Shown here in pieces: positions 1 to 1,197 of a DNA stretch of 1,197 nt. Position 1 is the first letter of the stretch. Each line of letters opens with the position of its first letter. The notes beneath the pieces were generated by a model. The model was not told the DNA's origin. It made no database searches and saw only the letters and a program-made list of their open reading frames with translations. The stretch is taken from the sequence record OR846210.1; one strand, given 5' to 3'. Origin of the DNA: a phage. The position numbers and the translations under genes are program-made.

Positions 1-181
1 CGATTAATCTATAATCCAGTTTTTTTCTGTTTTTTTGAACCATAGATATACATCTCATTTGCCAGACGCTACCAAAATAAAAAATTAAGACGGCGATTGT
101 TATTGGCCTGCATAAGTAATCGATATAATAAAAATTCATTACTGCGAATAATCTCATGTCGCCAGTATTTCCGTAATCCAT
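1..181 (-). CDS. speculative small hydrophobic protein, N-terminal part; frame continues beyond window start
   Basis: The minus-strand frame is stop-free from position 259 to position 2, where the window ends (86 codons), despite ~29% GC. First ATG at 181..179 gives MDYGNTGDMRLFAVMNFYYIDYLCRPITIAVLIFYFGSVWQMRCISMVQKNRKKLDYRLI..., with a transmembrane-like stretch followed by basic residues. The only Shine-Dalgarno-like element (AAGGA) is too close to the ATG (1-nt spacer). Y/F/I/N/K-rich composition is also what chance translation of AT-rich DNA gives. Confidence 0.2.
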   Translation of the reverse strand, partial: MDYGNTGDMRLFAVMNFYYIDYLCRPITIAVLIFYFGSVWQMRCISMVQKNRKKLDYRLI

Positions 182-402
182 TTCCTTTTTTAGATATGGA
201 AAATAATAAGCAATGTAAGAGTTTGATTTTTTCTTCCTCCAATGAAGAAAGCTAGATTGTTAAATAAATGTTATTATCGTGGGGGGTTCACGTATCAATT
301 GGTAAAAATACTATAAGATGGTTTTTTATAATACTTCATTTGCTATGCAAACTGAACATTTGATGCTAAAAAATAATAAAGGGTATTACTTTAATTCAAC
401 AC
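1..402. other. AT-rich (~29% GC) segment with phased A/T tracts; probable intergenic or horizontally acquired DNA
   Basis: Hand count gives 117 G+C in positions 1-400. Homopolymeric T7 runs at 20-26 and 30-36, A-rich tracts at 74-85 and 366-380, and several TATAAT-like hexamers. Composition changes abruptly at ~400-430, exactly at the 3' end of the coding block. Confidence 0.5.
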
Positions 403-423
403 CGCCGGGCTTTATACCCGGCG
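403..423 (-). terminator. candidate intrinsic terminator hairpin downstream of the 151-aa gene
   Basis: Perfect inverted repeat cgccggg (403-409) / cccggcg (417-423) with a 7-nt loop (ctttata), 7 nt beyond the TGA stop on the minus strand. The following minus-strand sequence is AU-rich (GUGUUGAAUUAAAGUAAUACCCUUUAUUAUUUUUU), but the U-run is displaced ~20 nt from the stem, so this is not a textbook terminator. Confidence 0.4.
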
Positions 424-429
424 AGAGAT

Positions 430-885
430 TCAACAATCGTATTGCCAGCTACTAACTAAGGCATAAAGGTGGCTGGGGGAGTAGCGCCAGCTATCGTTTA
501 GTCCGAGAAATTCAGCGCAAAACTCGCTGCAAAACAGTTTATCTTTGCGCTCCCGGTTATACAGCGCGATACCGAGCGCGCCCTGCCAGTCATAGCGTTT
601 GCCGTTATGTTTGCGGAAAAAGGCCTCCACTTCCGGCAACGTGGCCTTTAACGGTAGCTTATCCCACTTATCGTCCGGTAACGGTATTATCTTTCCCCGC
701 ACGCCGCGATCGCGAAACGATGCAGAGTAGCAGAGGTATTCATTACCGCCGTGCGCCACCGCCAGTTCACAGTGAGAGTAGATACCGCGCGTGACTTTGC
801 GCGTGAGCCAGTCGGCAAACCTGGCGATGCCGCGATACTCCGATCGCCCCTTATAGCAAGCGAGCCAGACGGTGGTTTGACTCAT
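430..885 (-). CDS. hypothetical Cys/His-rich protein, 151 aa; possible circularly permuted papain-fold (NlpC/P60-superfamily, YaeF/YiiX/LRAT-like) hydrolase
   Basis: Complete ORF from ATG (885..883) to TGA (432..430) with enterobacterial-type codon usage (ccg, ctg, gcg, cgc frequent). Start overlaps the upstream stop as ATGA. No N-terminal hydrophobic signal sequence; net positive charge by my count. Functional guess rests on His38 in YSHCELAVAHGG and Cys119 in FCSEFCAEF, which resemble the His-then-Cys order of permuted NlpC/P60 enzymes. This is motif recollection only. Confidence 0.75.
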   Translation of the reverse strand: MSQTTVWLACYKGRSEYRGIARFADWLTRKVTRGIYSHCELAVAHGGNEYLCYSASFRDRGVRGKIIPLPDDKWDKLPLKATLPEVEAFFRKHNGKRYDWQGALGIALYNRERKDKLFCSEFCAEFLGLNDSWRYSPSHLYALVSSWQYDC

Positions 886-1197
886 GGCTGCCAGCCTGAT
901 GAATAGTCGTAGTCGAGCACTTCCTGGATATCCCCCAGCGCTTCTACCGCCGCAATATGCCGCTGCGCGTTGGCAAACAGGCGCATATCGTGATCCATAG
1001 TGACGGTTTCAAACTGCGCGGCGATGTCGTTGGTCAGTTTAATCAAACCGTTATTTTTGGTCTGCCACATTAACCCTGCCGGAATCTGCTTTGCCTGACC
1101 CATTCTGGTGAGTGACATTTGCTGAATACGGCTGTTAGCATCGCTGTGGAAATGGTTGCCGTCGATAACGATATAATCGGTGGTAACGGTGTCGCGG
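882..1197 (-). CDS. hypothetical protein, 5'-truncated by the window edge (C-terminal ~105 codons visible); function unknown
   Basis: The track ORF 882..1118 (78 aa) starts at an ATG with no purine-rich Shine-Dalgarno in the preceding ~20 nt (minus-strand upstream reads gctaacagccgtattcagcaa). The same frame stays open to position 1196 with no stop, reading ...RDTVTTDYIVIDGNHFHSDANSRIQQ before MSLTRMGQ... Codons there are typical enterobacterial preferred codons (acc, gtt, atc, gac, ggc, aac, ttc, cac, agc, cgt, cag). The stop TGA (884..882) overlaps the next gene's ATG (885..883). Confidence 0.6.
   Translation of the reverse strand, partial: RDTVTTDYIVIDGNHFHSDANSRIQQMSLTRMGQAKQIPAGLMWQTKNNGLIKLTNDIAAQFETVTMDHDMRLFANAQRHIAAVEALGDIQEVLDYDYSSGWQP

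Follow-up and report, generated by a model that had tools for sequence, protein, structure and literature searches.

The 1,197-nucleotide stretch of DNA analysed here (sequence record OR846210.1; hereafter the window) makes up the distal end of the host-recognition (tail-fibre) module in Def4, a Salmonella prophage remnant. Its minus strand carries, at 430-885, a gene of 151 codons that is a homologue of STM4198 and a member of phrog_1128. The product is predicted to be an enzyme with a papain-like fold and conserved Cys, His, and Tyr residues, and it is placed in the permuted NlpC/P60 superfamily, where YiiX and BcPPNE are nearest to it. The enzyme gene is the last gene of the fibre module, and its start overlaps the stop of a tail-fibre chaperone gene. 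The identity and architecture of the locus can be assigned in this way with high confidence. The favoured explanation for the protein, to which a probability of roughly 0.6 is given, is that it is an accessory enzyme of the fibre module, with a lipid or a lipidated envelope component as its most likely substrate.

According to the listing of open reading frames (ORFs), the interval 430-1197 is coding on the minus strand only and holds two genes. The upstream one, at 882-1197, is the 3' part (104 codons plus stop) of a tail-fibre assembly chaperone gene of the DUF4376 class, homologous to STM4199. The two genes share four nucleotides at 882-885, an ATGA in which the chaperone stop (TGA, 884-882) overlaps the enzyme start (ATG, 885-883), and such a layout is the one that would be expected for translational coupling. 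A scan of the window found no promoter-like site on the minus strand for the two genes. The initial annotation of this DNA had described two tightly coupled genes, and the overlap bears this out. The 'small protein' that it had recognised upstream, a 78-residue ORF at 882-1118, is the tail of a frame that stays open to base 1197; it is a truncation artefact of the window edge, and the real gene encodes 201 residues in an identical contig from Salmonella (S.) Kentucky.

The 151-residue protein and its family

Neither gene had initially been placed in a family. The upstream product matches DUF4376 and PHROG tail families, as described below, and the 151-residue protein matches phrog_1128 at 2.6e-60. 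A word-indexed search recovered 39 relatives of the latter, whereas the full profile search put the size of the family at 3,880 representative clusters (E up to 0.001, clustering at 50% identity). Family members are nearly all stand-alone proteins of 135-170 residues, and seven longer members contain short extensions or insertions only, with no recognisable partner domain. The protein itself has no Pfam match at E up to 1 and no NCBIfam or PADLOC match, and NCBIfam returned no meaningful match for either window protein. The family alignment contains the invariant motifs Y-S-H-C-E, R-D-x-G-V-R, Y-D, and F-C-S-E.

An AlphaFold2 model was built from this alignment (predicted local distance difference test, pLDDT, 81.4; predicted template modelling score, pTM, 0.81). 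In a structural comparison it was nearest to YiiX and BcPPNE, and the next matches were TseH, Aichivirus 2A, PLAAT4, PPPDE2, and the MARTX RID domain, all of which are permuted NlpC/P60-type papain folds. Foldseek was in agreement, with 3kw0, the crystal structure of BcPPNE, as its best match (probability 1.00). Comparison of the family profile with the PDB by sequence also retrieved 3kw0 (E 9.1e-5), with the S-H and C-S-E motifs aligned. The 'putative hydrolase' of the initial annotation was thus a fair guess, given the predicted papain-like Cys/His fold.

Residue conservation was counted over 179 diverse family members. His38, the predicted general base (codon at 772-774, minus strand), is His in 179/179 and aligns with the catalytic His of 3kw0 (residue identity from PMC3142127). 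Cys119, the predicted nucleophile within the motif F-C-S-E (529-531, minus strand), is Cys in 174 of the 179 and aligns with the I-C-S-E-F motif of 3kw0. Between them lies Tyr98 (592-594, minus strand), which is Tyr in 178 members; the order is as in BcPPNE and YiiX, and on residue order it is a candidate equivalent of the conserved NlpC/P60 tyrosine (Tyr127 or Tyr115), a partner of the oxyanion or of the P1 carbonyl. In BcPPNE the residues follow one another as His49, Glu64, Tyr127, and Cys154, and the order His, Tyr, Cys defines permuted NlpC/P60 enzymes (PMC3142127). In the 151-residue protein, too, the catalytic His precedes the catalytic Cys, as circular permutation entails. Cys39, beside His38, was considered as a catalytic residue and ruled out; it is Cys in 131 members and probably not catalytic, because it is Val in 36 of the 179.

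The protein has several features in common with YiiX (PDB 2if6) and BcPPNE (PDB 3kw0), namely the permuted order of His and Cys, with the candidate Tyr between them, the S-H and C-S-E motifs, and a similarly small, single-domain size. However, it is only 17% identical to the crystallised proteins and about 30-40 residues shorter, it is not detected by the Pfam model Peptidase_C92 (PF05708), and its Glu64 position is Ala or Ser. In addition, its gene belongs to phages and has a fixed place after the genes of tail-fibre chaperones, a context not described for YiiX. Tox-Act1, TseH, PLAAT/LRAT, and LnsA are much more distant from the window enzyme than YiiX is; they are secreted effectors, membrane-anchored or eukaryotic, and they have immunity partners or membrane-targeting parts that the window enzyme lacks. 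The Def4 locus was already known, with STM4198 and STM4199 listed as 'hypothetical', and the enzyme superfamily is known as well. The Def4 enzyme lies outside the curated Peptidase_C92 model and is without the canonical acidic triad residue.

The label of phrog_1128, Enoyl-CoA hydratase / crotonase, would make the protein a crotonase-type metabolic enzyme. This was rejected, as there is no crotonase Pfam match and the predicted fold is papain-like. The label traces to gp51 of phage SuMu and its Haemophilus (H.) parasuis homologue, and the enzyme family carries the wrong name in PHROGs and GenBank. The same database name occurs in a list of genes associated with virulence in H. parasuis, in a passage that also ties fatty-acid metabolism to virulence (PMC4532294). 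The family is large, yet it is without a Pfam or NCBIfam model, and a correction of its annotation would be directly useful.

Comparisons from 99% down to 77% protein identity gave ratios of nonsynonymous to synonymous substitution (dN/dS) of 0.05-0.13, which point to strong purifying selection on the enzyme gene. Some Salmonella lineages carry versions of the enzyme of 84-85 residues, about 56% of full length, and these suggest gene decay in part of the population despite the low dN/dS of intact copies.

Linkage to tail-fibre chaperone genes

The chaperone gene that is cut by the window edge is complete in the 6-kb S. Kentucky contig (GenBank OR850896.1), to which the window is 100% identical. 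There it lies at 2194-2799 and encodes 201 residues, directly after a fibre gene on the same strand (2804-4573) whose 589-residue product has Phage_tail_fib and Phage_fiber_2 domains. Pfam DUF4376 is matched with 39.8 bits by the window fragment and with 46.2 bits by the full protein (cut-off 25), and there are matches to the PHROG tail families phrog_1807 and phrog_2837. Judged by these matches, the upstream gene appears to be an ordinary DUF4376-class tail-fibre chaperone gene and a part of the structural module. A member of the same DUF4376 family, gp27 of Alteromonas myovirus V22, has been demonstrated experimentally to be an intermolecular tail-fibre chaperone. Similar to Mu Tfa, P2 gpG, and T4 gp38, the Def4 chaperone gene lies immediately 3' of the fibre gene and encodes about 200 residues, with a variable N-terminal part that co-varies with the fibre tip and a conserved C-terminal part; it differs from these in being of the DUF4376 class (V22 gp27 type) and not Caudo_TAP.

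The co-variation is apparent when S. Kentucky is compared with S. Infantis. The C-terminal ~105 residues of the two chaperones are near-identical and the N-terminal parts are unrelated; DNA similarity covers only a block that begins 46 bp outside the window start and ends near base 1208, before resuming in the N-terminal half of the fibre gene. Between these blocks, at 2520-3813 of OR850896.1, the two serovars have unrelated sequences for the C-terminal half of the fibre and for the first ~95 residues of the chaperone, and the flanks are 94-97% identical. This is the classic mosaic of a host-range module, in which the fibre tip and the chaperone N-terminus swap together. At its end, the S. Kentucky fibre has a glycine-rich domain (Pfam Gly_rich_2) whose 23.9 bits fall slightly short of the 24.3 cut-off.

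Gene order was examined in 80 viral-contig loci and 79 genome loci with relatives of the enzyme gene, together with annotated phages, and junctions were counted for 161 family genes with enough upstream sequence. An adjacent upstream ORF on the same strand, typically of 180-260 residues, is present in 159 of the 161 loci. Most often the two genes overlap by 4 nt (66 cases), and the next most frequent junction is an overlap of 8 nt (15 cases). A DUF4376-type C-terminus was found in 88 upstream neighbours, and 68 distinct other neighbours belong mostly to 'tail fiber assembly protein' PHROGs, including phrog_8258 (40), phrog_188 (20), and phrog_105 (15). When Pfam was applied to the neighbours from the viral set, 35/59 matched DUF4376 and 8/59 matched Caudo_TAP. 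On these sequences, placement directly behind a tail-fibre-assembly gene appears near-universal in the family.

The same order is found in phages of several types, including myoviruses, siphovirus-like Moraxella phages, and phages with SU10 adaptors. For instance, the Mu-like myovirus SuMu encodes a fibre (gp49), an assembly protein (gp50), and directly after them the enzyme homologue gp51 (locus L083, 4944-5465), which is 40% identical to the window protein over 93% of its length. The name of gp51 is a legacy label, and the next SuMu genes are com and a methylase and not surface-modification cargo. The pattern recurs in Moraxella Mcat phages, Pseudomonas stutzeri phage pAN, Pasteurella Pm86 (ORF70, locus L170, 4001-4456), and a 57-kb contig with an SU10-type adaptor. 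The hosts are Enterobacteriaceae, Pasteurellaceae, Neisseriaceae, and Moraxellaceae, and a single genome often has several copies; Bergeriella denitrificans and Spirabiliibacterium pneumoniae each have three separate copies, presumably in three prophages each.

A more distant example is V22, in which a fibre gene (ORF26), a DUF4376 chaperone gene (ORF27), and ORF28 abut in the same order. ORF28 belongs to the same phrog_1128 (E 1.3e-19) and aligns with the family profile in hhalign at 95.8% probability. However, it is only about 22% identical over the aligned 97 columns and has H-C-G and C-Y-E in place of H-C-E and C-S-E; its match to Peptidase_C92 is below threshold (19.8 bits, cut-off 27). 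Additionally, V22 is a plaque-forming marine myovirus isolate, whereas Def4 is a prophage remnant. ORF28 is already labelled a 'permuted papain-like amidase', and in the literature it is listed only as a 'protein catabolism' gene. The main text of the SuMu paper does not mention gp51, and the literature search found no study on systematic coupling of enzyme and chaperone or on the function of the family.

Possible roles of the enzyme

Under the favoured explanation, the gene of this cytoplasmic enzyme, having no promoter of its own, would share the transcript of the late tail genes. Its translation would fall to ribosomes that have just terminated on the chaperone gene, and the enzyme would therefore be made together with the chaperone. 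By analogy with the superfamily, the conserved residues Cys119, His38, and Tyr98 would serve as nucleophile, base, and oxyanion partner, respectively, and a thioester acyl-enzyme would form on Cys119, to be followed by hydrolysis or acyl transfer. The most likely target would be a host lipid or a lipidated envelope component, attacked late in infection in the service of the host-recognition module, although this is the weakest step of the scheme. A lipid or lipidated substrate seems most likely because the characterised permuted members act on fatty-acyl linkages (PMC3142127, PMC12994826, PMC7387801). For instance, YiiX was crystallised with a fatty acid in its hydrophobic S1 tunnel, Salmonella Tox-Act1 and Vibrio cholerae TseH are phospholipases, human LRAT and PLAAT proteins are acyltransferases or phospholipases, and Staphylococcus aureus LnsA takes part in lipoprotein N-acylation. 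Taken by itself, a lipid-directed role is proposed tentatively.

The enzyme would be an accessory of the fibre module, outside the fibre-folding machinery. The V22 fibre gp26 becomes functional in Escherichia (E.) coli with the chaperone gp27 alone, so that neither the folding of the fibre nor its binding to cells depends on the enzyme. Similarly, phage A5 shares the V22 module but is without the enzyme gene, and together these observations argue for accessory status. Engineered receptor-binding modules, as in retargeted tailocins and phages, usually take only the fibre and the chaperone.

Several observations weigh against the favoured explanation or parts of it. Peptidase_C92 misses the window protein, and among 32 aligned close relatives, for which Pfam otherwise gave nothing, only one matches it, at E 0.073. 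At the position of the acidic third triad residue (Glu64 in YiiX and BcPPNE) the window protein has Ala55, and over the 179 members this position is Ser in 141 and Ala in 38. Glu40, two residues after His38 and near-invariant (175/179), might stand in for the missing acidic residue. The family alignment contains no signal peptide or membrane segment, and the enzyme would have to gain access to an envelope lipid on its cytoplasmic side, once the cell has lysed, or from the virion. The substrate proposal is itself a guess from distant relatives at 9-19% identity. In jumbo phage RP12, a distant homologue (ORF176, locus L169, 4995-5438) is solitary and on the opposite strand, and the linkage of enzyme and chaperone is therefore not obligatory. 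Adjacency to chaperones of unrelated families fits a role tied to the fibre or chaperone as well as it fits a lipid role. Finally, the hairpin that follows the enzyme gene has no U-tract, which weakens the case for transcription termination at the end of the module.

The main rival is that the enzyme is a peptidase or amidase with the fibre or the chaperone as its target; it might, for instance, remove a chaperone cap or trim the fibre tip after trimerisation. Such processing would explain why the enzyme is so constantly co-encoded and co-translated with the chaperone: the gene is next to fibre-assembly genes in 159/161 loci, these belong to at least two unrelated chaperone families, and stop and start mostly overlap. 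It is also in keeping with the literature proposal that DUF4376 chaperones are transient fibre caps, with the proposal that YiiX and BcPPNE are amidases or peptidases (PMC3142127), and with the block common to S. Kentucky and S. Infantis, in which the enzyme gene is linked to the C-terminal domain of the chaperone. However, although it accounts for the linkage well, this role is weakened by the V22 and A5 data. V22 gp26 and gp27 alone yield a fibre that binds host cells, gp27 separates from the fibre without a protease, and the related A5 module does without the enzyme. Furthermore, the RP12 homologue is not beside fibre genes, and the characterised permuted NlpC/P60 enzymes prefer hydrophobic acyl groups. 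Processing of the fibre or chaperone is thus considered rather unlikely.

A broader reading of the accessory role is that the host-recognition modules of phages widely include the enzyme as a third component, so far unrecognised, alongside fibre and chaperone. It is left open because of the near-universal chaperone linkage and the conserved catalytic residues, and it is at present speculative and improbable. Made late and acting for the fibre, the enzyme may strip or transfer acyl groups on the receptor-bearing envelope (lipopolysaccharide, lipoprotein, or phospholipid), in which case progeny may avoid being trapped or entry may be eased. Alternatively, it may ride on the virion, or it may remove host-attached modifiers from tail proteins. 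Once found, the substrate of the enzyme could bring to light a new accessory step in the way phages recognise their hosts or are released.

A quite unlikely alternative is that the pair, or the enzyme alone, is cargo that benefits the lysogen through receptor modification or superinfection exclusion, like the gtr and acetyltransferase genes of Def4. The enzyme gene does close the tail module, and cargo accumulates there (the S. Infantis acetyltransferase and the S. Kentucky phrog_1962 gene, with gtrABC inside the element), PHROG files phrog_1128 under 'moron, auxiliary metabolic gene and host takeover', and purifying selection persists in a remnant that can no longer make phage. However, the gene has neither a promoter-like site nor intergenic space, it is present in V22, a plaque-former without a described lysogen, and its product has no export signal. 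The copies of 84-85 residues in some Salmonella lineages also speak against such a benefit, and a nearby Def4 intergenic region is reported to be transcriptionally silent in culture. An autonomous moron was rejected, as the enzyme gene has no promoter and no gap but a 4-nt overlap with the upstream gene.

Superfamily membership alone might suggest a classical NlpC/P60 cell-wall hydrolase, tail-borne or released at lysis, that cuts peptidoglycan stem peptides. Canonical members are endopeptidases of the gamma-D-glutamyl-meso-diaminopimelate (gamma-D-Glu-mDAP) bond, and in some phages the gene lies just before the lysis genes. In contrast, the topology here is permuted, and the hydrophobic S1 pockets of the nearest structures differ from those of peptidoglycan-cutting relatives. 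A signal peptide and a cell-wall-binding domain are both absent from the protein, and Def4 and SuMu already have dedicated lysis enzymes. This role is therefore regarded as very unlikely.

Least probable is a defence or anti-defence module, for PADLOC-DB (E up to 0.01) gave no match for either window protein or for the S. Kentucky cargo ORF, the fold is much nearer to YiiX and BcPPNE than to PPPDE, and the neighbours are structural genes with no typical defence partners among them. The initial annotation had suggested an accessory, anti-defence, or defence-related module. A self-contained cassette of this kind is not supported: neither a promoter-like site nor a gap separates the pair from the tail operon, and the same gene order is found in the functional phages SuMu, Moraxella Mcat, and V22. 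What looked like a cassette is where a known prophage remnant ends, and no defence system is present.

The Def4 element, the hairpin, and the neighbouring cargo

The window is 97.6% identical to S. Infantis SARB27. A megablast search with the window against complete E. coli genomes gave no match, and the locus is thus of Salmonella type at the DNA level; E. coli proteins with 77% identity to the enzyme exist. By cross-reference to LT2 in the S. Infantis annotation, the 151-residue gene is STM4198 and the upstream gene STM4199. STM4199 is preceded by the tail fibre gene STM4200, a gpI-like gene, baseplate J, gp25-like W, gtrABC, V, D, X, and U, and further along Def4 by genes for tape measure, tube, sheath, SLT lysozyme, and Mor activator. 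The whole element in S. Infantis sits between lysC and a chromosomal gene annotated STM4194/yjbD. The window is therefore the right (distal) end of prophage remnant Def4 (LT2 STM4196-4219).

Def4, as the element is named in the literature, is a prophage remnant of about 20.4 kb. It was found in all S. Typhimurium genomes examined in one study, and array studies describe it as variable among serovars and divergent in S. Enteritidis. STM4200 serves as a Typhimurium-specific marker for quantitative PCR (PMC6201931). That the locus is accessory, horizontally acquired DNA is thus supported, as had been suspected from the window alone: it lies at the distal end of a serovar-variable element, its neighbours are phage structural genes (tail fibre, baseplate, sheath, tube), and its two genes did not prove to be conserved core genes with well-characterised functions.

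In S. Infantis SARB27 (21585-39199), Def4 keeps sheath, tube, tape measure, baseplate, fibre, and chaperone genes, as well as those for the SLT lysozyme, a small membrane protein, and the Mor activator. Genes for head, portal, terminase, transposase, and integrase are absent, and gtrABC is inserted between the baseplate genes V and W. This gene content resembles an R-type tailocin cluster. The record OR850896.1 is entitled 'Salmonella phage S.Kent 1-2-1' and flagged UNVERIFIED_ORG; its 6 kb consist of Def4 tail genes and cargo, and their source is probably the host chromosome and not a phage genome.

A GC-rich stem-loop lies at 403-423 (minus strand), 7 nt past the TGA stop of the enzyme gene, with a stem of seven to eight GC pairs and a loop of five bases. 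As RNA, a 56-nt stretch that includes it folds at -20.2 kcal/mol (z = -3.6), and 0/200 shuffles fold as well. Fourteen enterobacterial relatives (77-99% protein identity) retain the hairpin with loops that differ, and in two sequences one G-C pair is replaced by a compensatory A-U pair. Past the hairpin, the sequences of the 14 relatives are unrelated, and the divergence starts immediately. A conserved hairpin followed by unrelated flanks marks a module boundary and a hot spot of cargo exchange, and the structure probably marks where the late tail operon ends at its 3' side, either by terminating transcription or by stabilising the RNA. A canonical intrinsic terminator was dropped from consideration, as no T-run follows the hairpin and the terminator scan called none in the window; the initial annotation was correct about a hairpin directly after the genes. 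At a permissive threshold, Rfam gave no significant family in the window; a weak match to the Hrs12 small RNA across the hairpin (395-468, minus strand; 22.1 bits against 70, E 0.79) was treated as chance. ARAGORN found no tRNA in the window.

GC content is 0.24-0.33 over 1-400 and 0.48-0.64 over 450-1197, and the AT-rich stretch of about 400 bp that had been noted past the hairpin is therefore real. It had been taken as evidence on the nature of the gene pair, but it belongs to a separate, broken cargo gene. S. Infantis SARB27 has, at 19637-20113, an intact acetyltransferase gene of 158 residues with Hexapep domains, which starts at the equivalent of base 113. The window retains a dead 5' remnant of this hexapeptide-repeat gene at 1-113 (minus strand), with two in-frame stops (TGG to stop) at Trp codons of S. 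Infantis, and the AT-rich non-coding stretch at 114-402 is collinear with the region upstream of the intact S. Infantis gene. Since 1-402 belongs to the acetyltransferase gene, low GC is a property of a separately acquired cargo unit and not of the two genes. The description of a moron, with its own promoter and terminator, fits this neighbouring gene.

The similarity to the acetyltransferase gene ends 46 bp beyond the window start. About 300 bp beyond the window start, at 279-1007 of OR850896.1, S. Kentucky has an ORF of 242 residues, which falls in phrog_1962, 'glycosyltransferase' (E 7e-100), and for which Pfam gave no match. In S. Kentucky, the rest of the acetyltransferase gene thus appears to have been replaced by the phrog_1962 glycosyltransferase gene, in a swap of cargo right after the hairpin. 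Both of the alternative cargo genes bear transferase labels (acetyltransferase and glycosyltransferase), and gtrABC is located in the same element.

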